Positions 7,472-21,770 of a stretch of 32,000 bases of DNA are shown in pieces. The stretch covers positions 19,384-51,383 of the forward strand of contig NZ_CAKKMF010000008.1 in NCBI RefSeq assembly GCF_918697925.1. The letters are read 5' to 3'. The DNA is from Arthrobacter sp. Bi26. Its GTDB lineage: Bacteria; Actinomycetota; Actinomycetes; Actinomycetales; Micrococcaceae. The position numbers and the translations under genes were made by a program. The notes under the pieces are model-generated. The model did not search any database, was not told the origin of the DNA, and saw nothing but the letters and a program-made list of their open reading frames with translations. Every line of letters begins with the position of its first letter. The stretch's first letter is position 1.

Positions 7472-8221
7472 TCAGCGCTCGTCTGCGCCGAATGGGGTCA
7501 CCACTGTCCGGCGGGGCGTCCCGGCGTCGTCGTAGTTCAGTGTGCTGACACGGACGCCGTACAGCGCCGAGAGCTGCGCGTCGGCGAGTAGCGGCCCGGC
7601 AGGACCAGTCACCACCCCCTCGGCGCCCATGAGGACCACCGAGTCTGCGAGGAACAGGGCGTGGTCCGGGTGATGGGTGCTCACCAGCAGCGACATCCCG
7701 CTCCGCACGAGTTCCCTCAGGAGCTGGAGGACCCGGACCTGGTTTTTCAGGTCCAGCCCGGTGGACGGCTCATCCAGGACAAGGAGCCGCGAACCTCCCG
7801 CGACGGCCCGTGCAATGAGGACCAGCTGCTGCTCGCCGCCGCTCAGGGTCGGGAACAGCCGGTCGGCCAGGGCGGCGATCCCCACCCGGTCCATGGCCTG
7901 GAGGGCGGCAGCCCTGTCCCGGGTGCCGGGGGAGCGGAAGACGCCGATGTGGCGGGCACGGCCCATGACCACCATGTCCAGGGCCGGGTAGCCGAACGTG
8001 CTGCCACGCGCCTGGGGAACATAGCCGGCCGTCTCGGACCGGCGCACCGCCCCCTCCTGGACGGCCAGCATGCCCGCCGCGCAGCGCACCAGCGTCGTTT
8101 TGCCGCTGCCGTTTGGCCCCAGGACCGCCGTCACGGTGCCCGGCGGCACCGAGAAGCTCAGATCCTTGAACACCCAGTTCTGCGGTGAATAGCCAAACCC
8201 GGCACCGCGTAGTTCAAGCAC
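7472..8221 (-). CDS. ABC transporter ATP-binding protein (FecE/FepC/BtuD-like)
   Basis: 249 aa with a GTG start. Walker A GPNGSGKTT, signature LSGGEQQ, Walker B LLVLDEPSTGLD. It overlaps the upstream permease stop by 8 nt. Confidence 0.92.
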   Translation of the reverse strand: MLELRGAGFGYSPQNWVFKDLSFSVPPGTVTAVLGPNGSGKTTLVRCAAGMLAVQEGAVRRSETAGYVPQARGSTFGYPALDMVVMGRARHIGVFRSPGTRDRAAALQAMDRVGIAALADRLFPTLSGGEQQLVLIARAVAGGSRLLVLDEPSTGLDLKNQVRVLQLLRELVRSGMSLLVSTHHPDHALFLADSVVLMGAEGVVTGPAGPLLADAQLSALYGVRVSTLNYDDAGTPRRTVVTPFGADER

Positions 8222-9320
8222 CGTCCCAGATCCTCTCCCTGTTCCGGCGCAACAGCACGAAGAAGACCGGCGCCCCGATTAGGGCGGTGAGGACTCCTAA
8301 CGGGATTTCACCGGCCGTTGCGGTGCGCGCAATGGTGTCTATGGCGATGAGGTACGCCCCGCCCAGCAGGAATGAGACCGGCAGCAGGACGCGGTGGTCC
8401 GGGCCCACCCACATCCGCGCCAGGTGCGGGATGACCAGCCCCACCCAACTGATGACGCCGCTGACGGCCACGGCCCCTGCCACCATGAGGGCCACGGCGG
8501 AGAGGACAGCCCAGCGCAGCGGACGCGGCCGGAGGCCCAGGGCCGCGGCGTCGTCGTCGCCGAGCGAGAGCACATTGATCCGCCACCGCAGTGCCAGCAG
8601 GACGACGCCGCCGGCAGCAATCGGAATGAAGGCCACCAGTACCTTCGCCCAGGTTGCGGTGGCGACACTGCCAAGCAGCCAGAAGACGATTGCGGGAAGG
8701 GTGGTGAACGGGTCCGCCAGATACGTCACCAGGGCCACCAGGGCGGAGAAGAACGAGGCCGTGACGATTCCTCCGAGGACGACCATGAGGATGTGGGTGC
8801 CGCCCCGGCCGGACGTGATGAGGAAGACGATGGCCAGTGCCAGCAGCCCGAAGCCGAACGATCCGCCCACGAGGGCCACCGGACCCAGGCCCAGCAGCAG
8901 GGCCAGGGCACCACCGAAGGAGGCACCGGATGAAACGCCGATGACCTCCGGACTGACCAGGGGATTACGGAACACGGCCTGCAGCGCCGCACCGCCAAGT
9001 GCGAGGCCACCACCCACCAGCAGGGCCAGCAGGACCCTGGGCAGCCTGACCAGCAGCACCACGTTTTCCTCGGCAGCGGGAAGGCTTGAGCCCAAGGGAA
9101 CTATCCGGGAGGCCAGGATTTCCGCGACATGGGCGAGGGACACGTTGTAGCGGCCGCTGGCGAGGGCAAGCGCCGACACGGCGGCCAGGACGGCCGCTGA
9201 GAGCAGGCATGGACCGATGACCTGGCGCAGCCTCGGTCCGCGGCGGCCGCCAAGGTGTCCCGTGGTCAGAGGCTGGGCCTCACGAAGCATCGAACTGCCG
9301 GTAGTTGGCCGAGATGCCAT
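8214..9320 (-). CDS. ABC transporter permease, FecCD/BtuC family
   Basis: The 368-aa ORF is polytopic and hydrophobic, with the C-terminal FecCD signature ...ARTATAGEIPLGVLTALIGAPVFFVLLRR. The start is ambiguous: ATG 9320 or ATG 9290 (MLREAQ...). Confidence 0.88.
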   Translation of the reverse strand: MASRPTTGSSMLREAQPLTTGHLGGRRGPRLRQVIGPCLLSAAVLAAVSALALASGRYNVSLAHVAEILASRIVPLGSSLPAAEENVVLLVRLPRVLLALLVGGGLALGGAALQAVFRNPLVSPEVIGVSSGASFGGALALLLGLGPVALVGGSFGFGLLALAIVFLITSGRGGTHILMVVLGGIVTASFFSALVALVTYLADPFTTLPAIVFWLLGSVATATWAKVLVAFIPIAAGGVVLLALRWRINVLSLGDDDAAALGLRPRPLRWAVLSAVALMVAGAVAVSGVISWVGLVIPHLARMWVGPDHRVLLPVSFLLGGAYLIAIDTIARTATAGEIPLGVLTALIGAPVFFVLLRRNRERIWDGA

Positions 9321-10458
9321 TGGCTTCAGTCCACAGGATCTTGTCCGTCTCCGGCGCTGATGGCCGGTAGCGGTACAGGAAATCGAAGTAGTCGCTGGTC
9401 TGGTCCCTCAGCGCGGACCGGCTGCCGGAGGGGAAACTGATATCGCTGAGCCAGCGCCACATCAGGGGTGACTCCTGGCCCGGGGGATCCCAACGGTACC
9501 CGCCCAGCGGCACCTTGTACACGCGCCGGGAACGCACGGCGGACACGCTTTGCCACACCGGATTGCCGTAGACGTCCGCGGGCATCGCGTCGTCGAAGTT
9601 CCCCAGCAGGATGATCTCCGGATCCCATGCCAGGACCTGTTCGACGTCGACCCCCACCATGCCCTTGCCCTGGAGGCCCTGCGGGCCGGTTGCTGGATTG
9701 TGGCCGCCGATGAGCTTGATGTAGAAGTCGTTGTAGCTGTCGTTTCCGGCAACCTTGAGCCCGCCGCTGAACCTGTTGAAGTAGATGATGCCCGGGCCGC
9801 CGGTGCCGCGGGAGGCGGCCTCGGCCTGGATGGACCTCTGTTGCTCGTCGCTGCGCGCCTTCATCTGCGCGGCCCGCTCCGGGTGCCCCAGCATCGTCGC
9901 GAACAGCGCGGTCCAGGTGTCCACATCCTGCTGCGTACCGGTGTTCGTGATGCCCAGGACCTTCATCCCGGCTTGTTCCAGCGGTGCCGTAAGTTGCGCA
10001 TCGCTCCACTGGACCACGACGTCCGGGTTCAGTGCCCGGATGCTTTCGACATTGGGCGTGAAATCGGTAGTGGCGATGTCGTGCGGAATATTCAGGGCCT
10101 CCGGGTACATGGTGCCCATGGCGCCGTCACGCATGGCAACCCAGGAGGCGTTATGCATCCCGGCGAGATGGCTTGCGCCCTGGTCGACGGCGGCGAGCAG
10201 GGAGGCGGCCGGCATGGGAATGGTCACCACCCGGGTGACCGGGCGGTCGAAACTCAGCACGGTCCCGCGCTGGTCCGTGACCTGGATCCCGGCCGAACCG
10301 GCGGCGGAACCCGGTGGCGAGGTACCTGCCGGTGGCATTGACAGTGGTGTTGGCTGCGGCGGCGTGCTTCCCGGGGCGCAGGAAGCGAGGAACAGCGCCC
10401 CTCCGCCGTAGAGGGCCGCTGCCAGTACTGATCGTCGGTTGGCTTCGGGGATGTTCAT
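9280..10458 (-). CDS. ABC transporter substrate-binding lipoprotein (periplasmic binding protein, FecB/BtuF/CeuE class)
   Basis: Part of ORF 9280..10563. Start set at ATG 10458, preceded by GGGAGG. The N-terminus MNIPEANRRSVLAAALYGGGALFLASC looks like a signal peptide with an RR motif and lipobox LASC, followed by a Pro/Ser/Gly-rich tether. The body (VTRVVTIPMPAASLL...NPDVVVQW...WDPEIILLGNFDD) fits a class III binding protein. Confidence 0.85.
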   Translation of the reverse strand: MNIPEANRRSVLAAALYGGGALFLASCAPGSTPPQPTPLSMPPAGTSPPGSAAGSAGIQVTDQRGTVLSFDRPVTRVVTIPMPAASLLAAVDQGASHLAGMHNASWVAMRDGAMGTMYPEALNIPHDIATTDFTPNVESIRALNPDVVVQWSDAQLTAPLEQAGMKVLGITNTGTQQDVDTWTALFATMLGHPERAAQMKARSDEQQRSIQAEAASRGTGGPGIIYFNRFSGGLKVAGNDSYNDFYIKLIGGHNPATGPQGLQGKGMVGVDVEQVLAWDPEIILLGNFDDAMPADVYGNPVWQSVSAVRSRRVYKVPLGGYRWDPPGQESPLMWRWLSDISFPSGSRSALRDQTSDYFDFLYRYRPSAPETDKILWTEANGISANYRQFDAS

Positions 10459-10671
10459 CGGCCTACCTCCCGGGAAGGACCGCACACGAGCGGCCATTCG
10501 CTCCGCGCCAGCCATGGCAGTGTTTCCAGCCACGACAGTGTTCCAGGCACGGCATTCCCTCACAGCATCTGCCGAATGCGCAGGGGTGTCAATGCCGGCA
10601 ACGCGGACATTGTTTGCCGATGGGCGGCGGTGCTAGCCTCGCACATATCCCCTGTGAAACGAGGCCACGGG

Positions 10672-11445
10672 ATGCAAGTCAATGGCGCTCAACTCTTTGT
10701 CCGGTACGCATATCCGCCGAATTCGCGGGGCAGCTGCGGGCCGCCGGACAGCGATGCGCTGCTGCACTATGGCCAGTCGGGGGTGACGGACGCGGGCCTG
10801 CGGGAACTGGCCAAGGGGTTCGCCGGCGCCTGGCCGTATCTGGAGCTCATCGCCGGTGCCACGGGCAACCCGGACCCGCTTGACTACCCGGTAGTGGAGG
10901 CCTACTGGGTGGGAAACACGCTGCTGGACTCCGTGGGTGTGCGCAGCATCGGCAATTCCATGGAGGACAGGTTCCGAGCACGGACCGGCCATCAGTTTCC
11001 GCATCTCATGGAAGGGGTCCTGGCCGGCGGCGTACCGCACCACAGCTTCCATGTGCTGGAAATCTATCCGTGGCTTGGACTGTTGCGCGATGATCGGCGC
11101 TCATCCACGGCCCTGAACGTCCTTGACCAATGCCGCATCCGGTGGGGCGAAGTGGTGGCCGTCGAAGGGGACAGCGCCCTGGTGCGCTCCCGGCCCCTGG
11201 TCTGGGACGGGATGGCGCTCTCGCTCGGCGAACCGGTGATCGAGACGGCCAAGTACGCCGTGGCCGGGTCCGGCTTCATCGCTGACCTCACGGCAGGCGA
11301 CATGGTGTCCCTTCACTGGGACTGGGTGTGCGACCGGCTGGGGCCGGCGCAGCTCCACCGGCTCCAGCACTACTTTGCGCGCCACCTCAAGATCGCCAAC
11401 TCCGGCGTGGAGCATCGCGGCGCCGCGATTGCACTCGAACAGTGA
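10672..11445 (+). CDS. Conserved hypothetical protein (I recall such genes annotated DUF6390 next to actinobacterial hydrogenase genes; unverified) with a C-terminal HypC/HupF-like segment
   Basis: Part of ORF 10576..11445. Start set at ATG 10672 with GAGG upstream. N-terminal motif YAYPPNSRGSCGPPDS. C-terminal aa ~154-225 (CRIRWGEVVAVEGDSALV...GDMVSLHWDWVCDRL) mirror the HypC pattern of the adjacent hypC (CLGIPGRIIEVIDG..LALV...GTWVLIHMGFALERV). Confidence 0.7.
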   Translation: MQVNGAQLFVRYAYPPNSRGSCGPPDSDALLHYGQSGVTDAGLRELAKGFAGAWPYLELIAGATGNPDPLDYPVVEAYWVGNTLLDSVGVRSIGNSMEDRFRARTGHQFPHLMEGVLAGGVPHHSFHVLEIYPWLGLLRDDRRSSTALNVLDQCRIRWGEVVAVEGDSALVRSRPLVWDGMALSLGEPVIETAKYAVAGSGFIADLTAGDMVSLHWDWVCDRLGPAQLHRLQHYFARHLKIANSGVEHRGAAIALEQ

Positions 11446-11473
11446 ATACAGAACAGTAAGGGGGGAGCGCAGG

Positions 11474-11731
11474 CTACGGGACGTTGTCGGTGGGGTCCGG
11501 GCCCCGTCCCATGAGCTCCAGTCCCGTCATGGCACGGTCGGCGCCAGCCTGGTCCACGCGCTCCAAGGCGAAGCCCATGTGGATCAGGACCCACGTACCG
11601 CTCTCCAACGGGCCGTCGTCGAGGAGCCCAATGTTGATCTTTCGCTGCACGCCTGCCACATCCACGAGGGCCAGTTGCCCGTTGTAGCCGTCGATCACTT
11701 CGATGATCCGGCCCGGTATTCCCAAGCACAT
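11474..11731 (-). CDS. hypC: [NiFe]-hydrogenase maturation chaperone HypC/HupF
   Basis: Part of ORF 11474..11758. The start must be ATG 11731 to give the obligatory MCLGIPG N-terminus (Cys2). A strong SD, GAGGAGGAAG, lies upstream. About 85 aa, typical length. Confidence 0.93.
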   Translation of the reverse strand: MCLGIPGRIIEVIDGYNGQLALVDVAGVQRKINIGLLDDGPLESGTWVLIHMGFALERVDQAGADRAMTGLELMGRGPDPTDNVP

Positions 11732-11744
11732 CCGCGCTTCCTCC

Positions 11745-12317
11745 TCAGCCTGCTTCATCCGAACCGGCGCTCGCGGTCGCTGCGTCCGCGGACGTTATGT
11801 GGGCCGTGACCAGTGTGCGCACTGCCTCCACGGCTGCCGGGACGGCGCGGGACACGTCCTCGGTCAGCTCCATGCCGTCGTCTGTTCGCCCCGCGATGCA
11901 ACCCACCAGGTAGGTCTCCGGCAGCGATCCGCCCAGGATGCGGAGGCGGCGCAGGACAGCCAGCGGGTCCATGCCATGCGGATCGAACTCCGGGTTGACC
12001 GGCAGGCCGGCCGGCGTGAGCGGTCCGCCGGGTTCCAGATCCTCCGCCCGGATCTTGAGGATCCGGAGGGTCCCGGCGCTTGTGCTTCCGTCCGCCGGGG
12101 CCGGAAGCACATCCACGAGCACCAGCGCATCCACCCCGTCCAGGAGATCGTAGGCGAGGTGCAGCCCGCGGACCCCGTAGTCCCTCACCTGAACGTGCTC
12201 TGGCACCCAGCCGGGCAGGCTTGACGCCTCCTGCGCCAGGCGGCGGGCGACGGCCGGTCCGAATCCGTCGTCGCGGAGGAACACGTTCCCCACGCCCGCC
12301 ACGAGAACCCTGCTCAC
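11745..12317 (-). CDS. hupD: Hydrogenase maturation endopeptidase (HupD/HyaD/HybD family)
   Basis: 190 aa with a GTG start. The N-terminus (M)SRVLVAGVGNVFLRDDGFGPAVARRL is the classic maturation-protease motif (GxGNxxxxDDGxG). Confidence 0.9.
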   Translation of the reverse strand: MSRVLVAGVGNVFLRDDGFGPAVARRLAQEASSLPGWVPEHVQVRDYGVRGLHLAYDLLDGVDALVLVDVLPAPADGSTSAGTLRILKIRAEDLEPGGPLTPAGLPVNPEFDPHGMDPLAVLRRLRILGGSLPETYLVGCIAGRTDDGMELTEDVSRAVPAAVEAVRTLVTAHITSADAATASAGSDEAG

Positions 12318-12324
12318 AGCGGGC

Positions 12325-12444
12325 TCACATGCTGCGCATTCGCATGTAGCGCTTGATGTCCGGAATCGAACGCAGTCCGACGACGGCCACTGCCAGGCCC
12401 GCGGCCAGCAGGAGCACGACGGTCATGATGCCCAGACCTTTCAT
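12325..12444 (-). CDS. 39-aa single-pass membrane micropeptide (MKGLGIMTVVLLLAAGLAVAVVGLRSIPDIKRYMRMRSM)
   Basis: Internal ATG of ORF 12325..12534. It is preceded by GGAAAGGAA, and its ATG overlaps the stop of the upstream gene (ATGA at 12441-12444). It has one hydrophobic helix and a basic C-terminal tail. Calling this a real gene is an inference from coupling and SD. Confidence 0.6.
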   Translation of the reverse strand: MKGLGIMTVVLLLAAGLAVAVVGLRSIPDIKRYMRMRSM

Positions 12445-13934
12445 GATGATGGTTCCTTTCCGTTGTCCGGGGGCTGCGCCGCGGCGAGCGGCACGAGTTC
12501 CTCGGGGGCGAAATACAGATACCGGCCGTACCATTCCTGCAGTTCGGCCGCCGGGTCGGCTTCGAGGACCACCGCGACGTGCGTTCCGCCGTCGACGTCG
12601 AAGTGGACTCCTGTGACACGTCCCGATTTACCGGCGAAGAAGAGGTCCTGCGCATCGGCGCGGCGCAGTGGAACAACCCGCACCCGGCTGCCGCGTGAGA
12701 CCTGGACGCCGTCGATGAAGACAGTGTCCGATTCCGGATCCACGGCTGCGTCCCGGGCCGGATCCCACCACGGCGTATCGGCGCCGGTGTTCGCGGCGGC
12801 GCCGTTGCCCGGGACGGAAAATTCAGGGACGGACAATTCCGAATCTGAATATTCCGGAACGGCGAAGCCGGGGAACTCGTCGTACCCGGACGTCCCGGGT
12901 CCGCGGGGCGAACCGGCGTGCGGGTTCCGCAGGATGCCGTGCAACTGCTGGAGCTCCTCTGCTGTCATGTTTTCGCAGCGATCGATGATCGCTGCCGCCC
13001 GGGCATCGGTTGACCGGGCTTCCGCCTTTTCCTCATCGGTCAGCGTGAGCACCCGGAGGGTCAGGATTTCATCGATCTCCGTCGCGTCGAACAGTTCCAC
13101 GGTGCTCTCCGGCGCCACCGCGGGGTGGTCATAGAGGATGATCGGGGACAGGAGCAGGACATCGCGCTGCCCCTCGGGGCCGGCGAGCACGGGCCAGCAG
13201 CGGTGCTGGCGGCACGAAGCCGCCGCCGCCGACGCCCACTGCGGCGGATCGATCACCGAGAGGAAGTCGGCGTCGTGGACTGCGAGCAGGACGTGGGCTC
13301 CGATGAACGAGAGCTCGATGGCGGACCGCTTGTCGGTGGTTGCTGCCGCCGTGTTTTCGACCGTGACCCTGAGCCGCCACAGCGGACCTGCCGCCGGCAC
13401 CGGTGTCGCCACTTGCGTCGCCATCAGGCGCAGCTCCCCGCGGAGCGTCCGACGCCGGCGTACGAGCCTGCCGGCGGTGGCGCCGCGGGTGTCCCGTAAG
13501 GGCTCGATGTCCTCGGTCGCCGGGACGTTGACCGGCGCGCGCACGCCCGCGGCAAGTTGGCCGAGGCTGTACGGCCCGAGCGTGATCTCCTGATCCGTGG
13601 CCTCGTCCCAGCTGAGCCACCGGGACGGGCCGACCAAGAGTTCATCGACGGGTGTGAAGCCGCCGTCATCCGCGCGCTCGGCGGACCTTGTCTGCAGGTG
13701 CAGGAAGCGAAGATGGACTTCGACCCGGGCTGCGGGTCCCGGCTCGAGGAGGCAGTCCGCTGCCATGTCCGGCTCTTCACCGGCGCCGGCGGCTGCCGCG
13801 CCCGGCGGCCCAAGCACCCCGAACTGCCAGCGGGCCTGGTTCTTGGCGGACGAGGCGCGGTACGGGTACAGGAGGTACCCCTCATAGAGGACAGCGTCGG
13901 CGACGGCGCGTGCCAGGCTGAGGCCGGCGTTCAC
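12441..13934 (-). CDS. Conserved hypothetical protein of Hhy-type hydrogenase clusters (497 aa, two domains joined by a low-complexity linker)
   Basis: GTG start overlapping the upstream stop (GTGA). N-terminal motif LYEGYLLYPYRASSAKNQARWQFGVLGP. Acidic/Pro-rich linker at about aa 338-400 (…EFPGFAVPEYSDSELSVPEFSVPG…). The C-terminal ~95 aa look beta-rich (VFIDGVQVSRGSRVRVVPL...GRVTGVHFDVDGGTHVAVVLE). I recognise no catalytic motif. Confidence 0.75.
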   Translation of the reverse strand: MNAGLSLARAVADAVLYEGYLLYPYRASSAKNQARWQFGVLGPPGAAAAGAGEEPDMAADCLLEPGPAARVEVHLRFLHLQTRSAERADDGGFTPVDELLVGPSRWLSWDEATDQEITLGPYSLGQLAAGVRAPVNVPATEDIEPLRDTRGATAGRLVRRRRTLRGELRLMATQVATPVPAAGPLWRLRVTVENTAAATTDKRSAIELSFIGAHVLLAVHDADFLSVIDPPQWASAAAASCRQHRCWPVLAGPEGQRDVLLLSPIILYDHPAVAPESTVELFDATEIDEILTLRVLTLTDEEKAEARSTDARAAAIIDRCENMTAEELQQLHGILRNPHAGSPRGPGTSGYDEFPGFAVPEYSDSELSVPEFSVPGNGAAANTGADTPWWDPARDAAVDPESDTVFIDGVQVSRGSRVRVVPLRRADAQDLFFAGKSGRVTGVHFDVDGGTHVAVVLEADPAAELQEWYGRYLYFAPEELVPLAAAQPPDNGKEPSS

Positions 13935-14572
13935 GGTACCGGGTCACCCGCCCCGGCCAACAGGCCCTCGATTGCCGCCTCCCAGGAAGTCAGGCCGTGG
14001 ACCGCCTTGTACCTGGCCAGGGCCGCCAGGACGTCGCGGTCCAGGCGGATCCATCCCTGGTTGGGGAAGAATGCGTCTATCAGCGAGCGCCAGACGGCCA
14101 CGGGCAGGGCGTACCGCGCTTCCCGGTCCCAGGGAATCTGCTCGACGCCGAAGCCCGCCGCGCCGCGCGTGAAAACTGTCCCGGAGAAGAGGAACTCCAG
14201 CGGAACGGTCCCGTCCCGCAGGGAGTTCAGGTACTTTGCCGCGGCGACCTCGAAATCGAAGGTGCAGGGGAGCGGCAGGTCAACCTCGACGCTGTCCGCA
14301 AATCCCTGCACCAGGACGCTGCTGTGCATCCACATGAAGGGCTTGAGGGTGGTGGGCCACCGCCCGCGGTTGCCGAAGAGTTCCAGCAGCCCGGCTTCCT
14401 CGTCGGCGTCGTAACCGCGGCGTTGGGCCAGGATCCGCACCTGGCAGCGCAGGGCCATGGCGTGGATGGCGGCGCCGCTTCGCTCCTGGATCCGCAGGCG
14501 CGCGGTCAGCTGGGGTGCGGCCGCGTAGGGCTCGGGGGTGATGTCCAGCACGCTGAATTCGAGGTCAACCAT
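13931..14572 (-). CDS. Conserved hypothetical protein of Hhy-type hydrogenase clusters (213 aa; I recall the label DUF6084, unverified)
   Basis: ATG start. It overlaps the upstream gene by 8 nt and the downstream gene by 4 nt. Coding-like composition. No motif recognised. Confidence 0.75.
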   Translation of the reverse strand: MVDLEFSVLDITPEPYAAAPQLTARLRIQERSGAAIHAMALRCQVRILAQRRGYDADEEAGLLELFGNRGRWPTTLKPFMWMHSSVLVQGFADSVEVDLPLPCTFDFEVAAAKYLNSLRDGTVPLEFLFSGTVFTRGAAGFGVEQIPWDREARYALPVAVWRSLIDAFFPNQGWIRLDRDVLAALARYKAVHGLTSWEAAIEGLLAGAGDPVP

Positions 14573-15311
14573 GGCGTCCCTCCTGCTCTGCCTGGGCCGG
14601 AGCGGGGGCGGGCCTGCTGCGGCTGCTGATCCGGTCGAAGAAGCCGGCGAGCTCCTGGCGGGACTCCTGGCCGCCGTCGAAGCCCTTCCACACCCGCCGC
14701 AGGCGGCCCACCAGCTCGTAGCACGTATCGATGGGGACCAGATGGCAGTCCGCCCGGTCCCGCTCGGGGCCGGGGGAGCGGATCAGCAGGGCTTCCGTGT
14801 CGGGGGCGAGCATGGCGATTGCCGGGTTGGCGGCTTGGACCGATGCCCAGGCGTTCAGGGGAAGTTCCGACTCCGTGGCGCCCGCCGGGCTCGGGTAGAA
14901 AGCAGCGGTCCGGCCCAGCGCCGAGTTGAAGAAGAAAAATGCCAGTCCCACCGGGATTTCCAGCTCGTCCCACTGGGCCTGCCCGAGCTCGAAGGGCTCG
15001 AATGAGACGTAGCGGTCAGGGACGGAACGGTAGCGCAGATGGGCCGACGAGTCCGTGAACAGCAGATAGCAGGGCCGGCACGTGCACAGCAGGGAGCGGC
15101 TCTCCAGATCCACCACATGCTGGTGGGCCTCCGGAATGGGCTCCGCGCACATCTCGCAGCGCTCGCCGGCAGGCTGGGCCGGGCGGGTGGAAGCTATCCG
15201 GCGGAGCACGGAGAGCGCCGACGTTCCCCCGGCTCCTGTACCGCCCGTGGGCTCCCTCCCGGCTCCTGTGCCGCCCGTCGCCGGCCTCCCGGTTCCCGGC
15301 GGCGCCGTCAT
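14565..15311 (-). CDS. Conserved hypothetical Cys-motif protein of Hhy-type hydrogenase clusters (248 aa; I recall the label DUF5947, unverified)
   Basis: ATG 15311 with GGAG upstream. Gly/Thr-rich repetitive N-terminus. It contains CEMC-X20-CTCRPC (C52, C55, C76, C78, C81). The true start could be further downstream. Confidence 0.75.
   Translation of the reverse strand: MTAPPGTGRPATGGTGAGREPTGGTGAGGTSALSVLRRIASTRPAQPAGERCEMCAEPIPEAHQHVVDLESRSLLCTCRPCYLLFTDSSAHLRYRSVPDRYVSFEPFELGQAQWDELEIPVGLAFFFFNSALGRTAAFYPSPAGATESELPLNAWASVQAANPAIAMLAPDTEALLIRSPGPERDRADCHLVPIDTCYELVGRLRRVWKGFDGGQESRQELAGFFDRISSRSRPAPAPAQAEQEGRHG
15228..15280 (-). repeat. 30-bp-period tandem repeat (CCCGGCTCCTGT[A/G]CCGCCCGT[G/C]G x2) encoding TGGTGAG(REP/GTS)
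   Basis: Read directly: copies at 15228-15250 and 15258-15280 differ at 2 positions. It lies in the N-terminal low-complexity region of the 248-aa protein. Confidence 0.8.
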
Positions 15312-15353
15312 TCCCGGCTCCGTTCCCGTGCCGCGGCGTTCATTTGCGGCACC

Positions 15354-16328
15354 TCACAGCGGGTCCGCGGTGGTGGGAACGGCCACGGAGGGAACACCGT
15401 CGCGGAGCAGCAGTGGTAGAGGATCAAGATGCAGTGCCTTGTCCTCGAGGCAGGCCCCGGCCTTCCGGACGTCGAAGTGGCTGCGGCAGTGCGGGCAGCG
15501 CAACAGCCCGCCGCCCACCGGGGCCGCCAGTGCACGCTGCAGCGAGGCGCCCGGCATGGAATGGGTGCAACGGGGGCAGCGGTCCACAAACGCGTAAACG
15601 TCCGGGCCGATCCGGCAGGTGAGCACCTCGACGCCCGCCACCAGGAAGCCCGCGACGCTCCCGGACTCGAGTTCAGCGAGGGCCGGGACCGCCTGCCACG
15701 TGCCGGAGGCCGGCGTGGCGGCGTCGTGCGCCGTCCAGTCCGGTGCGCCGGCGTCGGACGGGCCGCCGTCGTGGCCGCCCAGCCCGTCCAGCCTGGAGCG
15801 CAGGGCACCGACCGGGATCAGGGCAGGTACGGCGGCGGGGGCCGCCTCCTCCACTTCGATGGCGGTCACCTCCGGCGCCGCGGTTTCTATCGCGTCCTCG
15901 ACGGCGAGTTTGAGAGTGACCGACGACGACGGACAGCCCTGGCAGCTGCCCAGCAGCCTCAGCCGGACGACGCCCTCTTCGCTGATGCCGAGAAGCTCCA
16001 CATCCCCGCCGTGCGAGCCGAGGTAAGGCCGGACTGAGTCGAGGGCGGCGGCGACCCTCCCGGGCAGGTCCACGGGGTGCAGTCCGTGGATCAGCAGCAG
16101 GCCGGACACCAACGGGTCCGACGTGAGAGCGGACACCGTTCCAGAATCGAGCACACCCTGCGCATCCAGCACATGCAGGATTCGTTCCAGCCCGGCACCG
16201 TACAGCTCCGTTACCTGCCGGACCAGTTCCTCTGCCCGGTCCCGGGCCACAGGACCGCCGGAACCCAGCGCATCGAGGAGCGAACTGATCCGTTCACCGG
16301 CCGAGCCCAACAGATTCTCCCGGTCCAT
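15354..16328 (-). CDS. hhyE: Hydrogenase-associated iron-sulfur protein: NifU-like domain fused to a Rieske-type [2Fe-2S] domain (HhyE-like)
   Basis: 324 aa. NifU C-terminal-type segment VRPYLGSHGGDVELLGISEEGVVRLRLLGSCQGCPSSSVTLKLAVEDAI. After an Ala/Pro-rich linker comes a Rieske-like pattern, C-T-H ... C-R-S-H (DRCPRCTHSMPG...LLRCPHCRSHFDVRKAG). It sits immediately downstream of hhyL (6-nt gap). Confidence 0.8.
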   Translation of the reverse strand: MDRENLLGSAGERISSLLDALGSGGPVARDRAEELVRQVTELYGAGLERILHVLDAQGVLDSGTVSALTSDPLVSGLLLIHGLHPVDLPGRVAAALDSVRPYLGSHGGDVELLGISEEGVVRLRLLGSCQGCPSSSVTLKLAVEDAIETAAPEVTAIEVEEAAPAAVPALIPVGALRSRLDGLGGHDGGPSDAGAPDWTAHDAATPASGTWQAVPALAELESGSVAGFLVAGVEVLTCRIGPDVYAFVDRCPRCTHSMPGASLQRALAAPVGGGLLRCPHCRSHFDVRKAGACLEDKALHLDPLPLLLRDGVPSVAVPTTADPL

Positions 16329-16334
16329 GGCGGG

Positions 16335-18128
16335 CTACTCACCGGTGAGCGACTGCGTGGGGGAGTGCAGCAGGTCCAGCGTCTGCCCGTCCCCCAGGTA
16401 CATGTGGACGCCGCACGGCAGGCAGGGGTCGAAGCTCCGGACGGTGCGCATGATGTCGATGCCCTTGAAATGATCGCGGTCGTTCTCCTCGAAGATGGGC
16501 TGGCCCTGCACCGCGTCCTCGTACGGACCCGGCGTTCCCTCGGAGTCGCGCGGGCTCGCGTTCCATGGCGTCGGCGGGTAGGGATGATAGTTGGCGATCT
16601 TGCCGTCGCGGATCACCATGTGGTGGGAGAGCACGCCGCGGACGGCTTCGGTGAAGCCGCAACTGATGGCTTCGTCCGGGACCTCAAAGGACTCCCAGGT
16701 CTTGGTGCGGCCCGCCCGGATCTCCTCGAGTGCCTTTTCGGCGAAGTGCAGTGCAGCGGCGGCCGCGTAGGCCTGGAAATAGGTCCGCGCCCGGTTGCGT
16801 TCCAGCGTGTTGCTCCACTGCGGGATCTTCCATTCCAGGGTCACCGGGCCCTTCAGCGCCGTCTTGGGCAGCTCGATCTGGACGCTGCTGCCCGTTGACT
16901 TGAGGTAGCCGGTCTCGACGAGTCCGGCAAGGGCGGTGGACCACAGCCGGGCAAGCGGCCCGCCGCCGGTATCCAGCGCCAGATTGTTTTCGCCGTCAGA
17001 CCACCGTGGCGACATTACCCAGCTGTACTTGTCCTCCAGGTCGCGCTTCTGCGGCCGCGGGTTGGTGTGCTGGTTCCAGGGGTGCCGGCGGTCCACCGGG
17101 TTGCCCAGCGGATCACGGGTGACGAACATTTCCTGGTCGCCCCAGTCCTCGTAGTACGACGAGCCCAGCATGATGCGGATCCCCAGATTGATCCGCACCA
17201 GGTCCGTGGTCACGAGTTTGCCGTCCACCACCACCCCGGGGGTGACGAACATCTTCCGGCCCCACTCCGTCATGTCCTTGTAGGCGAAATTGCAGAACTC
17301 CGGATCCTGGAAGGAACCCCAGCAGCCCAGCAGGGTGCGCCGCAGCCCCACATGCTCGTAACCGGGAAGTGCCTCATAGAAGAAATCGAACAGGTCGTCG
17401 TGCATCGGCACGACCTTCTTCATGAACTCCACGTAGCGCATGAGCCGGGTGATGTAGTCCGTCATCAGTTGGATCGTCGCCACGGTGCCCACGCCGCCCG
17501 GGTAAAGCGTGGAGGGATGGACATGCCGGCCCTCCATCAGACAGAACATTTCCCGGGTCATCCGGCTCACCTGCAGCGCCTCGCGGTAGAACTCCCCGGT
17601 GAACGGGTTCAACGAGCGCATGATGTCCGCGATGGTGCGGTAGCCGTGCTCGGCCGCGTGAGGGGCCGGCGTGTTCTCGGCTTTGGCGAGCACCGCCGGG
17701 TTGGTTTCGGAGACCATCTTCTCGCAGTAGTCAACGCCGACCAGATTCTCCTGGAAGATGTTGTGGTCGAACATGTACTCGGCAGCCTCGCCCAGGTTGA
17801 CGATCCATTCGCCGAGGTGCGGAGGCTTCACCCCGTAGGCCATGTTCTGCGCGTAGCAGGAGCACGTGGCGTGGTTGTCGCCGCAGATTCCGCAGATCCG
17901 GCTCGTGATGAAGTGGGCGTCCCGGGGGTCCTTGCCGCGCATGAAGATGGAATAGCCGCGGAAAATCGATGACGTGCTGTGGCATTCCACCACTTCGTTG
18001 TTCTTGAAGTCGACCTTGGTATAGATGCCGAGGCTGCCGACGATCCTCGTGATCGGGTCCCAGGCCATCTCCACCAGGTTTTCGCCCGCGGAACCGTCCG
18101 CCGAAGGCATCGGAATCGTCGAAGTCAT
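16335..18128 (-). CDS. hhyL: [NiFe]-hydrogenase large subunit, group 1h (formerly group 5; Hhy type)
   Basis: 597 aa. The N-terminal Ni-binding motif is TSRICGICGDNHATCS and the C-terminal motif is RSFDPCLPCGVHMY. I recall these as the group 5/1h L1/L2 signatures. Confidence 0.95.
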   Translation of the reverse strand: MTSTIPMPSADGSAGENLVEMAWDPITRIVGSLGIYTKVDFKNNEVVECHSTSSIFRGYSIFMRGKDPRDAHFITSRICGICGDNHATCSCYAQNMAYGVKPPHLGEWIVNLGEAAEYMFDHNIFQENLVGVDYCEKMVSETNPAVLAKAENTPAPHAAEHGYRTIADIMRSLNPFTGEFYREALQVSRMTREMFCLMEGRHVHPSTLYPGGVGTVATIQLMTDYITRLMRYVEFMKKVVPMHDDLFDFFYEALPGYEHVGLRRTLLGCWGSFQDPEFCNFAYKDMTEWGRKMFVTPGVVVDGKLVTTDLVRINLGIRIMLGSSYYEDWGDQEMFVTRDPLGNPVDRRHPWNQHTNPRPQKRDLEDKYSWVMSPRWSDGENNLALDTGGGPLARLWSTALAGLVETGYLKSTGSSVQIELPKTALKGPVTLEWKIPQWSNTLERNRARTYFQAYAAAAALHFAEKALEEIRAGRTKTWESFEVPDEAISCGFTEAVRGVLSHHMVIRDGKIANYHPYPPTPWNASPRDSEGTPGPYEDAVQGQPIFEENDRDHFKGIDIMRTVRSFDPCLPCGVHMYLGDGQTLDLLHSPTQSLTGE

Positions 18129-18153
18129 TGCATTGCCTCTCTGCTTAGCGTCC

Positions 18154-19212
18154 CTACCAGGTCCGCTTGGCGCCGGTCAGCAGTTCATTGCCGGGTTTGC
18201 GCCAGCGTGGTTCCTGGTCCAGCGTGTGCTTCGTGATGTTCCGCAGTGTCCTGATGGTCTTGCCGTAGGGCATGACCGACGCGGTGGACAGTTTGCCGCC
18301 AGGAGGTTCGTCCATGAACGGCATGAATTTGTCCGGGAATCCCGGCATCGTGCAGCCGATGCAGATGCCGCCCACGTTCGGGCAGCCGCCGATTCCGTTC
18401 ATCCAGCCACGCTTGGGCACGTTGCACTTGACCACAGGTCCCCAGCAGCCGAGTTTGACGATGCACTTCGGGGACCCGTATTCGGTGGCGAAGTCGCCCT
18501 GTTCGTAGTACCCGGCGCGGTCGCATCCCTCGTGCACCGTCTGGCCGAACAGCCACGTTGGCCGGAGTGCCTCGTCAAGGGGAATCATGGGTGCCTGCCC
18601 GGTGGCCTGATACAGCAGATATGTCATGGTCTCTGACAGGTTGTCCGGCTGGATGGGGCAGCCCGGGACGCACACGATCGGGATTCCGGCCTTGGACCGC
18701 CAGTCATATCCGAGATAGTCGGGCACCCCCATGGCCCCGGTGGGGTTCCCGGCCATGGCATGGATGCCGCCGTAGGTCGCGCAGGTTCCCGCCGCGATGA
18801 TCGCCGTCGCCTTGGGGGCCAGCCGGTCCAACCACTCGCTGGTGGTGATCGGCTGTCCGGTCTCAAGGTTGTTGCCGAAGGCAGCCCAGTAGCCGCCCGC
18901 GGCGTGCAGCTTCTCATTCGGGATGGACCCCTCCACCACCAGCACGAACGGCTCCAGCTCGCCGCGGTCCGCCTTGCGGAACCACTCGAGGAAGTCGTCG
19001 GCTCCCTGCTGCGGGCCGCATTCGAAGTCGATCAGCGGCCAGTGCATGGCGATTTTGGGGAGTCCGGGAAGCGCCCCGAGGGCTATCTCCTCGACGCTGG
19101 GCTGGGTTGCCGCCGTCAGGGCCACGGAGTCACCGTCGCAGCTGAGTCCGGCGTTGATCCACAGGACGTGGATCAAAGTTTCTTCCGCTTTCAATGCAGT
19201 AGCTGTAGGCAT
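18154..19212 (-). CDS. hhyS: [NiFe]-hydrogenase small subunit, group 1h (Hhy type), no Tat signal peptide
   Basis: 352 aa. The start MPTATALKAEETLIHVLWINAGLSCDGDSV runs straight into the conserved core without an RRxFxK leader. Multiple Cys clusters (GTCATYGG, CVPGCP, KLGCWGPVVKCN, GGICIGCTMPGFPD). GGAGG SD. Confidence 0.93.
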   Translation of the reverse strand: MPTATALKAEETLIHVLWINAGLSCDGDSVALTAATQPSVEEIALGALPGLPKIAMHWPLIDFECGPQQGADDFLEWFRKADRGELEPFVLVVEGSIPNEKLHAAGGYWAAFGNNLETGQPITTSEWLDRLAPKATAIIAAGTCATYGGIHAMAGNPTGAMGVPDYLGYDWRSKAGIPIVCVPGCPIQPDNLSETMTYLLYQATGQAPMIPLDEALRPTWLFGQTVHEGCDRAGYYEQGDFATEYGSPKCIVKLGCWGPVVKCNVPKRGWMNGIGGCPNVGGICIGCTMPGFPDKFMPFMDEPPGGKLSTASVMPYGKTIRTLRNITKHTLDQEPRWRKPGNELLTGAKRTW

Positions 19213-19269
19213 CGTTGCCTCCTTCGGAGCCCCGCCCTGCGGCTGCGGCTCGAATGTTGCGTCAGCAGG

Positions 19270-20205
19270 TCAAACGCGTAGTCCACCGGAGCGCGGTGCG
19301 CTCCCGACGGCGGCCGTCGCCGCGTGGGGATTCTTCCGGATCCACTCCAGCCAGCCATCCATGCCTTCGCCGGTGGTAGCTGACAGGGTCAGGACGTCGA
19401 CGCCGGGATTCAGCCGGCGCGCCTGGCCAACGCAGCGCTCGACGTCGAACTCCACGTAGGGGAGCAGGTCTGCTTTGTTGATGATCACCAGGTCGGCAGC
19501 CAGGAACATGTGGGGGTATTTCTGCGGTTTATCATCGCCCTCCGTAACTGAGATCACGACGACCCTGGCCGATTCGCCGAGGTCGAACAATGCCGGGCAC
19601 ACCAGGTTGCCCACGTTTTCGATGAAGACTGTGGAGCCGGGTCCAGGGTCCAGTGCGTCCAGGGCCCGCTGCAGCATCCCGGCATCCAGGTGGCAGCCTG
19701 CTCCGGTGTTAATTTGGATCACCGGCCGCCCCGTGGACCGGATCCGGTCGGCGTCCAGCGAAGTCTCCTGGTCGCCTTCAATGACACCGATGTCCAGTTC
19801 TCCGGCCAGTTCCCGGATGGTCCGCACCAGGAGCGTGGTCTTGCCGGCCCCGGGGGAACTCATGACATTGAAGGCCCGGATGCCGCGTCCTTCCAGCCAT
19901 CCCCGGTTCCGTGCGGCCAGGAGGTCGTTCTTGGCGAGAAGATTCTCCTCCAGGGAAATGAGCGTCCGTCCATCAGGCGCGTGGCTGTGCCCGTCAGGCC
20001 CGTGATCGTGCGGATGTTCGTGCCCGTGATCGTGGGGATGCGGATGGGGATGCGGATGCTCGTGCGGGGCTGCAGCAGCGTGCACCGTATTCTGCACTGT
20101 TCCGTCGTGCACTGTTCCGTCGTGCACCGTTCCGTCGTGCACCGTTCCGTCGAGGTCGGAAACCCTTGTTCCGGCGTCGTCGCCGCATCCGCACGTCGCA
20201 CACAT
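19270..20205 (-). CDS. hypB: Hydrogenase nickel-incorporation GTPase HypB with His-rich N-terminal extension
   Basis: Part of ORF 19270..20331. Start set at ATG 20205, giving the MCATCGCG N-terminus (the CxxCGC high-affinity Ni motif). GGAGG lies upstream and the start is 2 nt after the hypA stop. GTPase motifs SSPGAGKTTLL, IENVGNLVCP and INKADLL are present. Confidence 0.93.
   Translation of the reverse strand: MCATCGCGDDAGTRVSDLDGTVHDGTVHDGTVHDGTVQNTVHAAAAPHEHPHPHPHPHDHGHEHPHDHGPDGHSHAPDGRTLISLEENLLAKNDLLAARNRGWLEGRGIRAFNVMSSPGAGKTTLLVRTIRELAGELDIGVIEGDQETSLDADRIRSTGRPVIQINTGAGCHLDAGMLQRALDALDPGPGSTVFIENVGNLVCPALFDLGESARVVVISVTEGDDKPQKYPHMFLAADLVIINKADLLPYVEFDVERCVGQARRLNPGVDVLTLSATTGEGMDGWLEWIRKNPHAATAAVGSAPRSGGLRV
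20092..20151 (-). repeat. Four tandem 15-bp units ([C/G]TGCAC[C/T]GTTCCGTC) encoding (DGTVH)3-DGTVQ in HypB, adjacent to an HPHPHPHPH/HDHGHEH tract
   Basis: Read directly. Units at 20092-20106, 20107-20121, 20122-20136 and 20137-20151, plus a degenerate copy at 20077-20091. His-rich coding continues to about 19985. Confidence 0.9.
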
Positions 20206-20207
20206 AC

Positions 20208-20537
20208 CTATGCAACCTCCACCGACGTGACCAGGAGTTCCCGGCCGCTGACGATTTCGACATCGGCGCTGCCGCACGGACAGAGCAGAAATATGTCCTC
20301 GAGGACGAATTCGTCGCGGCAGCTGCGGCACCTGGCCCGGCCCTCGGATTCATCGATAGTGAGGGCTGCCCCGGCCAGCGGCGTGTCAGCTGAAACCACT
20401 TCGAAGCAAAAGCGCACTGCGTCCGGCAGGACACCGCTCAAGGGGCCGATTCGCAGGTTGACGCCCGTGACGGGGCGGTCGCCGGTCCGGTTCAGGACCG
20501 CCTCCACAAGACTTTGGGTAATCGCAAGTTCGTGCAT
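20208..20537 (-). CDS. hypA: Hydrogenase nickel insertion protein HypA
   Basis: 109 aa. N-terminus MHELAITQSLVEAV (the MHE Ni-binding motif). Zinc motif CRSC...CPCG. First gene of the operon. Confidence 0.93.
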   Translation of the reverse strand: MHELAITQSLVEAVLNRTGDRPVTGVNLRIGPLSGVLPDAVRFCFEVVSADTPLAGAALTIDESEGRARCRSCRDEFVLEDIFLLCPCGSADVEIVSGRELLVTSVEVA

Positions 20538-20561
20538 GAGCTGCTGCCACCTCGTCGTTTC

Positions 20562-20590
20562 AATGTAGGCCCGCGGGGTACAAACTTCAA
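20562..20590 (-). promoter_or_regulatory. Candidate sigma-A-type promoter of the hypA-hhy operon: -35 TTGAAG (20590-20585), 17-nt spacer, -10 TACATT (20567-20562)
   Basis: Hexamers read on the minus strand. The -10 ends 24 nt upstream of the hypA ATG, with GAGGTGG SD between them. The spacer contains the palindrome CCCGCGGG. This is prediction only. Confidence 0.4.
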
Positions 20591-20858
20591 TATGCCTGCA
20601 CTAGGCTCGGAGCCGCCCCTCGCCGGCTGTCTTCCTCCCGTAGCCGCTCCCGCCAAAGCTGCCGGCGTGCTCCGGCCGTCGTGCCCGGCCGGAGGCCGCA
20701 ACCTTCGACTTCAACCAGAACGTCAAGGCACAGCGCCCGCGCCAGTGTCAAGGTCCGGCGAATACCGTGTCGGGCGCTGTAACCTTGGGAGGAACGCGCT
20801 GGGCTCTGGGAGCCCGGAGGCGGCAATATGAAGCACGACAATCACCGTCATCGAAAGT

Positions 20859-21770
20859 GTGGATAGATACGTGAGCAGCGAGCAGGGTTCAGCAACTCTG
20901 GAAGGCACCGAATTCGACCTGGAAGACGCCGTTATGGGTCCCACCGGGCGGCCCCATCGCGACTTTCCGGAGCCCGCACCGCTGTCTTCCCACGGTCCTG
21001 CGCGGGTGATTGCCATGGTGAACCAGAAGGGCGGCGTGGGCAAAACCACGTCCGCGATCAACCTCGCCGCAGCCCTGGCCGAATACGGCCGCCGGGTGCT
21101 CCTGGTCGACTTCGATCCGCAGGGTGCCCTGTCCGCCGGCCTGGGCACTAACCCGCACGAGCTCGATCTCACCGTTTACAACGTGCTGATGGACCGCAAA
21201 GTGGACATCCGCGACGCCATCCAGAAGACCGGCGTGGAAAACGTGGATCTGCTCCCTGCCAACATCGACCTCTCCGCCGCCGAGGTGCAGCTGGTCAACG
21301 AAGTGGCCCGCGAGCAGGTCCTGGACCGTGCGCTGAAAAAGGTCGAAGACGATTACGACGTCGTCCTGATCGATTGCCAGCCCTCACTCGGGCTCCTCAC
21401 GGTCAACGCGCTGACCGCCGCCCACGGCGTCATCATCCCGCTCATCTGTGAATTCTTCGCCCTGCGCGCCGTCGCGCTGCTCGTGGAAACCATCGACAAG
21501 GTCCAGGACCGCCTCAATCCGCGCCTGCAGGTCGACGGCGTGCTCGCCACGATGTACGACGCGCGGACCCTTCACAGCCGGGAAGTGATCGCCCGCCTGG
21601 TGGAGGCCTTCGGTGACAAGGTCTTCGAAACCGTCATCAAGCGCTCCATCAAGTTCGCCGACGCCACGGTTGCAGCCGAGCCCATCACAACCTACGCGGG
21701 CAACCACGTCGGTGCCGACGCCTACCGCCGCCTGGCCAAAGAGCTGATCTCGCGCGGCGGCGCGCCCTAG
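20859..21770 (+). CDS. ParA/Soj-family ATPase (the ParA-like gene that precedes scpA-scpB in actinobacteria)
   Basis: Deviant Walker A VNQKGGVGKTTSAINLAAALA, then LLVDFDPQGALS. The start is uncertain: GTG 20859, GTG 20871 or ATG 20934. Confidence 0.9.
   Translation: MDRYVSSEQGSATLEGTEFDLEDAVMGPTGRPHRDFPEPAPLSSHGPARVIAMVNQKGGVGKTTSAINLAAALAEYGRRVLLVDFDPQGALSAGLGTNPHELDLTVYNVLMDRKVDIRDAIQKTGVENVDLLPANIDLSAAEVQLVNEVAREQVLDRALKKVEDDYDVVLIDCQPSLGLLTVNALTAAHGVIIPLICEFFALRAVALLVETIDKVQDRLNPRLQVDGVLATMYDARTLHSREVIARLVEAFGDKVFETVIKRSIKFADATVAAEPITTYAGNHVGADAYRRLAKELISRGGAP

Follow-up and report, generated by a model that had tools for sequence, protein, structure and literature searches.

What is the role of the genes that separate hhyE from the maturation endopeptidase gene in operons for group 1h [NiFe] hydrogenases, which are among the main enzymes by which soils take up atmospheric H2? 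The question is raised here by a window of 32,000 nt, the whole stretch of DNA analysed, from Arthrobacter sp. Bi26 (contig NZ_CAKKMF010000008.1, positions 19,384 to 51,383), in which four open reading frames (ORFs) of this kind are located on the minus strand. They encode a DUF5947 protein, a DUF6084 protein, a 497-aa protein called X497 in the following, and a micropeptide of the family DUF6893. Taken together, sequence, gene context and natural gene fusions point to a maturation and assembly complex specific for group 1h enzymes, which would be built around X497, would include the endopeptidase and would not be part of the working enzyme. We give this explanation about an even chance of being right.

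The four ORFs are real genes and were found exactly where the initial annotation had placed them. The DUF5947 ORF (14565-15311, 248 aa), the DUF6084 ORF (13931-14572, 213 aa) and the micropeptide ORF (12325-12444, 39 aa) start with ATG, the X497 ORF (12441-13934, 497 aa) with GTG; the micropeptide ORF is nested in a longer 69-aa ORF listing. The overlaps that had been described between these genes were all confirmed in the sequence. The stop of the DUF5947 gene and the start of the DUF6084 gene overlap by 8 nt (14565-14572), the DUF6084 stop and the X497 start by the 4 nt GTGA (13931-13934), and the X497 stop and the micropeptide start by the 4 nt ATGA (12441-12444). Shine-Dalgarno-like purine runs are located 5' of the DUF6084 and micropeptide starts. 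The GC content at third codon positions (GC3) of the four ORFs is 0.80-0.88, similar to that of the adjoining hydrogenase genes. On the minus strand, the gene order is hypA, hypB, hhyS, hhyL, hhyE, DUF5947, DUF6084, X497, micropeptide and, as the last gene, the protease. The group 1h small subunit is encoded by hhyS (18154-19212) and the large subunit by hhyL (16335-18128), whose product carries a 22-aa C-terminal extension after CGVH575. HhyE (15354-16328) combines a NifU-like domain (Pfam NifU, E 2e-22) with a C-terminal Rieske-like Cys motif. The gene of the HupD/HycI-type maturation endopeptidase (11745-12317; TIGR00072, E 3e-27) begins 7 nt past the micropeptide stop.

The genes show a strict linkage to hydrogenases of group 1h. 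In genomes representing single species, at least 595 stretches encoding an X497 relative were detected, and the best 80 loci were compared. These belong mostly to Actinomycetota, towards which the set is biased, and include one metagenome-assembled genome (MAG) of the Sericytochromatia and one MAG named "delta proteobacterium". Wherever the contig reaches, the order hhyS-hhyL-hhyE-DUF5947-DUF6084-X497-(peptide)-protease is kept across these loci. hhyL was found upstream in 73 of 73 loci with sufficient contig, and the other seven loci end at a contig edge. Among 72,556 plasmid records, 13 encode a large subunit with at least 71% identity to HhyL, and these are exactly the 13 records with X497 and DUF5947; DUF6084 is present on 11 of them. 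The plasmid records yielded a single large subunit outside group 1h (Methylovirgula, 35% identity), and none of the accessory proteins was matched together with it. The initial annotation had asked whether the genes occur only in genomes with group 1h enzymes and in the same order; the co-occurrence was found on the plasmids and the common order in the 80 loci, with one exception as regards adjacency. On the metagenomic contig L086 (7465-10339), an operon of the structure HhyE-like-[DUF5947-X497]-HycI is located amid unrelated genes, and hhyS and hhyL are not found within 8 kb. Therefore, the linkage is very strong, but not absolute.

The translational coupling is conserved as well. A 4-nt overlap between DUF6084 and X497 can be drawn in 79 of 82 loci, while an overlapping start is possible for DUF5947/DUF6084 in 74 of 80 and for hhyE/DUF5947 in 60 of 78 loci. 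For these counts the candidate start nearest to the upstream stop was chosen, which favours small gaps. This choice cannot create the specific -4 register in 96% of the loci. The spacing between hhyS and hhyL, unlike that of the overlapping accessory genes, is usually 16-46 nt. The median identity to the proteins of the window is 85-86% for HhyS and HhyL, 49-59% for the products of the four ORFs and HhyE, and 46-53% for the protease, HypA and HypB. The accessory proteins thus resemble the Hyp proteins in their rate of evolution, and they change much faster than HhySL.

Start/stop overlaps of this kind had been taken by the initial annotation as a mark of complex partners, an interpretation that is independently backed by natural gene fusions. 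X497 is the hub of these fusions. In seven of the 150 best representatives of the family, which share less than 50% mutual identity, a HycI protease domain directly follows the C-terminal domain of X497; the seven fusion clusters are independent. They are found on several contigs and in several sources, including a MAG of the Acidimicrobiaceae. The fused HycI domains keep the motifs GDDGFG, xDA and DAHG, which we take, following the HybD structure, to be the three metal ligands of maturation endopeptidases. A DUF6084-X497 fusion forms a cluster of 28 members (JGI, NCBI, ENA and Logan), a DUF5947-X497 fusion is present on four contigs, and the N-terminal part of HhyE is fused to DUF5947 in the locus L087. 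HhyE, DUF5947, DUF6084, X497 and the protease are thus each covalently joined to another member somewhere in nature. HhyE belongs to the same module, as indicated by its fusion in L087 and its joint travel with the module in L086; the HhyE-like partners in both loci lack the NifU cysteines, and that of L086 has no NifU CxxC. Frameshifts as the source of the fusions were considered and rejected in view of the many contigs and sources, the 28-member cluster and the seven mutually distant clusters. The DUF5947-X497 fusion, moreover, skips DUF6084, which is impossible by frameshift.

The genomic contexts of the fusions show that real genes are involved. L085 is organized as hhyS-hhyL-NifU-like-DUF5947-DUF6084-[X497-HycI]-DUF6893-YceI-hypA-hypC-x-hypD, and L087 as [HhyE N-part-DUF5947]-[DUF6084-X497]-HycI-DUF6893-YceI-hypA-hypC-x-hypD. 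The YceI-like gene (polyisoprenoid-binding family) directly follows DUF6893 at 11044-11565 in L085 and at 4361-4873 in L087. On the plasmid pSCAT of Streptantibioticus cattleyicolor (L083, NC_016113.1, 556000-574000), the group 1h cluster is rearranged and the order is hypX-protease-hypA-hypB-X497-hemerythrin-hhyS-hhyL-NifU-like-DUF5947; DUF6084 was not found in this cluster.

Which functions can be deduced from the proteins themselves? The initial annotation recognised no catalytic or cofactor family in any of them, and searches of Pfam, NCBIfam, PDB sequences and profiles and Foldseek agree with this. For the three large proteins, the PDB sequence and profile searches revealed no homologue, only matches at chance level (CarS, ACP, DUF2059).

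The 248-aa protein belongs to DUF5947 (PF19372; E 2e-73, 246 bits versus a cut-off of 25, profile positions 1-176 of 177), has 7391 homologues and is the orthologue of PHG067 of C. necator and MSMEG_2717 of M. smegmatis. It consists of a variable N-terminal tail, a Cys/His-rich segment and an alpha/beta C-terminal domain. Residues 1-31 vary among the homologues and are encoded by an in-frame 30-nt tandem repeat (2.3 copies, 15228-15296), which makes the true start uncertain; the conserved core begins at about residue 32. A motif resembling a set of metal ligands follows (15069-15158, minus strand), with the pattern C52-x2-C55-x7-H63-x-H65-x10-C76-x-C78-x2-C81. These seven residues and the distal C197 are conserved to at least 95% in 83 DUF5947 sequences, an alignment that takes in Cupriavidus and Methylocystis. 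The AlphaFold2 (AF2) model is confident for the alpha/beta domain, with a predicted local distance difference test score (pLDDT) of about 90 over residues 100-235, and not confident for the Cys region, where the score is about 57. Foldseek found no fold match in the PDB (best E 0.12, template modelling (TM) score below 0.3). No Fe-S carrier domain such as ferredoxin, rubredoxin or Rieske was matched in Pfam or NCBIfam, where nothing besides the DUFs was obtained even at E≤10, and the comparison with the rubredoxin HoxR by hhalign gave a probability of 0.5%.

For the 213-aa protein, assignment to DUF6084 (PF19562) is equally clear (E 1e-92, 309 bits versus a cut-off of 25, profile positions 1-209 of 213), and a 100% match to an Arthrobacter protein was obtained. 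The alignment of homologues contains no conserved Cys or His; Trp, Arg, Phe and Gly account for most of the conserved positions. Therefore, this protein, the orthologue of PHG068, is probably an adaptor or scaffold.

X497, the orthologue of PHG069, has no Pfam or NCBIfam family. Its relatives, clustered at 50% identity, amount to 3865 clusters up to an E value of 1e-3, of which 1107 reach E≤1e-30. A hypothetical protein of the C. necator plasmid pHG1, whose gene is located between DUF6084 and the protease, shows 33.6% identity over residues 10-485 (96% of the length, E 7e-45, tblastn). The N-terminal domain (residues 1-338; 12921-13934, minus strand) contains a beta-sandwich core, modelled with confidence at residues 56-225, and a helical part at 283-336. 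Conservation is highest in the motifs YEGYLLYPYR (17-26) and SPIILYDHP (263-271), which are of low confidence in the AF2 model, as would fit segments that fold on a partner. A variable, low-complexity linker (residues 339-386; 12777-12920, minus strand) follows, with a pLDDT of about 30-43 over residues 341-400 and an in-frame 15-nt tandem repeat (1.9 copies, 12811-12839). The tandem repeats of this linker and of the DUF5947 tail are both located in regions in which the homologues vary in length. The C-terminal domain (residues 387-483; 12486-12776, minus strand) is predicted to be an SH3-like beta-barrel. The model superposes on PetP, an SH3-fold peripheral subunit of the cyanobacterial cytochrome b6f complex (Foldseek matches 2n5u and 7r0w_V, TM 0.66-0.75, root mean square deviation (rmsd) 2.1-2.4 A, probability 1.0), with an identity of just 20-23% and no match at the sequence level. 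Since SH3-like barrels are very common, the function of PetP cannot be transferred to X497. A structure search of BFVD gave small SH3-like barrels only, and the alignment of X497 contains no conserved multi-Cys or His motif. Two further matches were discarded. A likeness of the N-terminal domain to DrmA (Foldseek E 5e-4) had a TM score of 0.21 and an rmsd of 19 A and was not interpreted, and Phage_TAC_7 on residues 283-332, below the Pfam threshold in a search at E≤10, was treated as chance.

The 39-aa peptide (MKGLGIMTVVLLLAAGLAVAVVGLRSIPDIKRYMRMRSM) belongs to DUF6893 (PF21833; E 6e-14, 52 bits versus a cut-off of 24.6). It contains one transmembrane helix, which is variable, and a conserved basic C-terminal tail, S-x-P-D-x-x-R-Y-x-x-x-R-x-M. 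Of 77 loci, 74 have a small ORF with a hydrophobic helix in the interval from X497 to the protease, and in 72 of these 74 it has exactly 39 aa. In 73 distinct sequences, M1, G5, D29, R32, Y33 and M39 are invariant and S26, P28 and R37 are conserved to 95-99%, while the helix varies freely. This pattern fits selection on a docking tail and not on the helix. The basic flank of a membrane helix is generally found on the cytoplasmic side (positive-inside rule), and the basic tail thus predicts a cytoplasmic C-terminus. The DUF6893 gene is absent from pHG1, from pMpar-2 and from three actinobacterial loci. It is tandemly duplicated between X497 and the protease in L053 (11461-11713) and L066 (11437-11689). 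On the M. intracellulare plasmid the peptide ORF (L084, 9335-9454) is present and missing from the gene table.

How might these proteins act together? We propose that HhyE, DUF5947, DUF6084, X497, the DUF6893 micropeptide and the HupD-type endopeptidase would form one multi-protein machine. X497 would be the scaffold, binding DUF6084 and DUF5947 and bringing the endopeptidase to the HhyL precursor with its 22-aa C-terminal extension. DUF5947 would be the metal-handling member through its conserved Cys5/His2 cluster and may cooperate with HhyE, the NifU-like protein, in supplying metal centres or protecting them in air. DUF6084 would serve as an adaptor, and in Actinomycetota the micropeptide may hold the machine on the cytoplasmic side of the membrane via its conserved tail. 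The physical complex, the maturation role, the metal binding and the membrane anchoring are what we infer here. Endopeptidases of this type have one established job, the cutting of the C-terminal extension of the Ni-loaded large-subunit precursor. Because of this single job, the repeated fusion of the endopeptidase to X497 points to biogenesis, as does the joint travel of HhyE, DUF5947 and X497 with the protease away from hhySL. The protease fusions favour assembly over electron relay or tethering. The gene context agrees with this, as X497 adjoins hypX, the protease, hypA and hypB on pSCAT and the accessory genes of pHG1 and pMpar-2 lead into the protease and hyp genes; the specific linkage to group 1h enzymes is a further argument. 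Deletion of hhyE abolishes even the activity band with the artificial acceptor nitroblue tetrazolium (NBT) (PMC6883350), which fits a role in assembly or stability. The maturation machine is favoured because of this loss, the Hyp-like rates of evolution and the lack of a homologous chain in the PDB, in which the enzyme itself is represented by 5AA5.

Several points weigh against this explanation. The Cys/His cluster of DUF5947 could hold a redox-active Fe-S centre, and PHG067, of which MSMEG_2717 is described as a homologue (PMC6883350), has been put forward as the protein that takes up the electrons of the C. necator enzyme (Schafer 2013, as cited in PMC6883350). For HhyE, which is linked to the set by fusion, co-migration with HhyL and HhyS in native gels has been reported (PMC6883350), so that the fusion network could describe a holoenzyme supercomplex. 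The actinobacterial Hhy is associated with the membrane, while it has no transmembrane regions and no known anchor, and the micropeptide is an obvious candidate for the anchor of the mature enzyme. The position of the genes, directly after hhyE and ahead of the protease, is ambiguous. No homology to a known maturation factor was found when profiles of 83-85 sequences were compared by hhalign with HoxL, HoxO, HoxQ, HoxR, HoxT, HoxV, HypA, HypC and HypX of C. necator (probability 0.1-1.7% in all 30 comparisons). The explanations do not exclude one another, since the assembly line and its product could both be anchored by the peptide.

It is therefore necessary to consider that the proteins remain on the mature enzyme as an electron relay, a membrane tether or both. 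In this case, an Fe-S centre of DUF5947, together with HhyE, would take up the electrons of HhyS, X497 and DUF6084 would act as adaptors, and DUF6893 would be the anchor for the reduction of menaquinone; the complex would then correspond in function to HucM, or to cytochrome b in other hydrogenases of group 1. The Cys5/His2 cluster is compatible with such a relay, in line with the proposal for PHG067 and the reported co-migration of HhyE, while X497 and DUF6084 contain no conserved multi-Cys or His motif and the HhyE-like partners of L086 and L087 are devoid of the NifU cysteines. An anchor would explain the membrane association of an enzyme without transmembrane regions, and the distribution of the peptide is suggestive as well: it occurs in Actinomycetota and is absent from C. 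necator, the group 1h enzyme of which is described as cytoplasmic. However, the peptide gene is located among the protease, hypA and hypC in L085 and L087, although in the same two loci it is followed by the YceI-like gene, which would suit a tether. The PetP fold predicted for the C-terminal domain of X497, that of a peripheral subunit of a membrane redox complex, also speaks for this possibility. On the other side, X497 is repeatedly fused to the maturation protease, the module stays with the protease and away from hhySL in L086, the accessory proteins evolve Hyp-like and far faster than HhySL, and no homologous chain was found in the PDB, the crystallised C. necator enzyme included. On balance, we regard a relay or tether as the main alternative, which is nevertheless unlikely.

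A more specific form of this idea, which we hold to be rather improbable, is that DUF6893 represents the anchor, sought for a long time, by which group 1h enzymes of actinobacteria attach to the membrane. Its tail (SxPDxxRYxxxRxM-COOH) would dock on the SH3-like C-terminal domain of X497, and X497, DUF6084, DUF5947 and HhyE would stay on the working enzyme as a new adaptor to membrane and quinone. If true, this would explain how a hydrogenase without a twin-arginine translocation (Tat) signal and without cytochrome b passes the electrons of atmospheric H2 to the respiratory chain.

A role after assembly is also conceivable, in which the proteins would re-insert or re-reduce damaged Fe-S or Ni-Fe centres in air or stabilise the enzyme during long starvation. 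According to the literature, dormant cells keep group 1h enzymes working in air for a long time; a hand-over of clusters would be compatible with the NifU-like HhyE and with DUF5947, which is rich in Cys and His, and genes for hemerythrin and hypX are located beside X497 in pSCAT. Against this stands the endopeptidase, which acts once on the precursor, so that its fusion to X497 points to biogenesis. Protection or repair is inseparable from primary maturation by sequence alone, and we consider it distinctly improbable. That the ORFs are spurious, or unrelated to the hydrogenase and merely located in its operon, is refuted to near certainty by their coding-like GC at codon positions, the thousands of homologues of each large protein, the invariant synteny, the perfect co-occurrence with group 1h large subunits on plasmids and the invariant residues of the micropeptide.

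The association of such genes with hhySL had been assumed to be already known, and their function not, which corresponds to what the literature contains. Thermomicrobium carries "conserved hypothetical proteins hhaABC", the C. necator ORFs that correspond to the three large proteins (PHG067-069) are called ORFs of unknown function, and a comparative study of 2026 still describes group 1h with "four hypothetical proteins" and with "no anchoring membrane subunit". In the literature search no paper mentioned DUF5947, DUF6893 or DUF6390, and the single paper naming DUF6084 deals with aurodox biosynthesis. The association itself is not new, and the window contains the Arthrobacter copy of a known accessory set. 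New in this analysis are the invariant order, the co-occurrence on plasmids, the conserved overlaps, the fusion network and the distribution of the peptide. They turn a group of conserved hypothetical proteins into a testable model, a five-protein module tied via X497 to the endopeptidase together with an overlooked micropeptide. Group 1h enzymes are of interest as air-stable catalysts, and if the module is required for maturation, its co-expression will probably be needed for heterologous production of the enzyme.

The neighbourhood of the module in the window was also inspected. The longest ORF of hypB (19270-20331, minus strand) overlaps hypA by 124 nt, and the real start of hypB is therefore probably located further downstream. 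HypB contains a His-rich stretch, and a 15-nt tandem repeat of four copies (20093-20152) encodes its DGTVH repeats. Convergent with the end of the hydrogenase operon is a DUF6390 gene (10576-11445, plus strand, E 5e-89). A homologue of it is found within 10 kb of X497 in 63 of 80 related loci, and DUF6390 appears to be another hydrogenase-linked family without an assigned function. Past this gene, a FecCD-type ABC (ATP-binding cassette) importer consisting of binding protein, permease and ATPase is encoded (7472-10563, minus strand), which may serve the uptake of metals or siderophores. In the annotated parts of the window no hypCDEF genes were seen, and a promoter and terminator scan of 10400-20900 gave nothing exceeding the shuffled controls.

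The closest described counterparts of the operon are an actinobacterial-type hydrogenase cluster on plasmid pHG1 of C. necator H16 and, in M. smegmatis, MSMEG_2717 with the genes next to it. In the published numbering, hofK is PHG064, hofG is PHG065 and the protease is PHG070 (PMC4377017), from which the orthology of the three large proteins to PHG067, PHG068 and PHG069 follows. The order of the pHG1 genes, which include PHG066-PHG070, is that of the window (small subunit, large subunit, NifU-like protein, DUF5947, DUF6084, a 476-aa protein and protease), and the proteins share 34-43% identity with those of the window. After the protease come hypF, hypC, a SIS-domain gene, hypD, hypE, hypA and hypB. 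On pHG1, the genes overlap by 4, 8, 4 and 4 nt. The 8-nt overlap of DUF5947 and DUF6084 is annotated in both pHG1 and pMpar-2, as in the window, and in both plasmids the accessory genes run via 4-nt overlaps into the protease, followed by hyp genes. In contrast to the window, neither plasmid has the 39-aa DUF6893 gene between X497 and the protease, and the NifU-like protein of pHG1 has 192 aa, whereas HhyE of the window has 324 aa and an extra Rieske-like C-terminal half. The expectation that homologues accompany hhySL in Mycobacterium, Streptomyces and the Cupriavidus megaplasmid therefore holds with a restriction: the 39-aa peptide is absent from Cupriavidus and Methylocystis. RefSeq-derived annotations of C. 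necator, Methylocystis and M. intracellulare (L081, L082 and L084) give the small subunit of group 1h the name 'hydrogenase expression protein HypE'. In M. intracellulare, a plasmid-borne nuoA-G set for an NADH-quinone oxidoreductase (L084, 10944-17308) begins about 700 nt downstream of hypC, the last gene of the hydrogenase cluster.

As regards structures, 5AA5 was the only group 1h large subunit in the PDB search, and we take this entry to contain only HofG and HofK. HofG aligns to residues 8-575 of HhyL and ends at the His that precedes the 22-aa extension. A structure of Hhy with partners was found neither in the literature search nor in the PDB.

The small extra protein HucM explains membrane association and quinone access of the group 2a enzyme Huc (PMC10017518). 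Like the module of the window, it is encoded together with a hydrogenase for atmospheric H2. HucM, a scaffold and menaquinone conduit, was compared by predicted structure only. Unlike HucM, X497 has a predicted structure in which beta strands prevail and one end is SH3-like, and the micropeptide is a single-pass transmembrane helix. A long amphipathic C-terminal helix suited to a coiled-coil tube, as in HucM, was not seen in the AF2 models of X497 and DUF5947, in which the longest helix has 19 residues and none is stalk-like.

A better parallel to the proposed maturation machine is offered by the maturation proteins of the group 1d membrane-bound hydrogenases (MBH), HoxL, HoxO, HoxQ, HoxR, HoxT and HoxV as well as HyaE, HyaF and HybE. 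They are likewise specific for one isoenzyme, and their genes are likewise located between the structural and the hyp genes and beside a specific endopeptidase. A difference concerns the small subunit: that of group 1h has no Tat signal, which in the MBH systems is the binding target of HoxO, HoxQ and HybE. The MBH-specific accessory proteins are needed for assembly in air. By analogy, we think that the module of the window works like these proteins.

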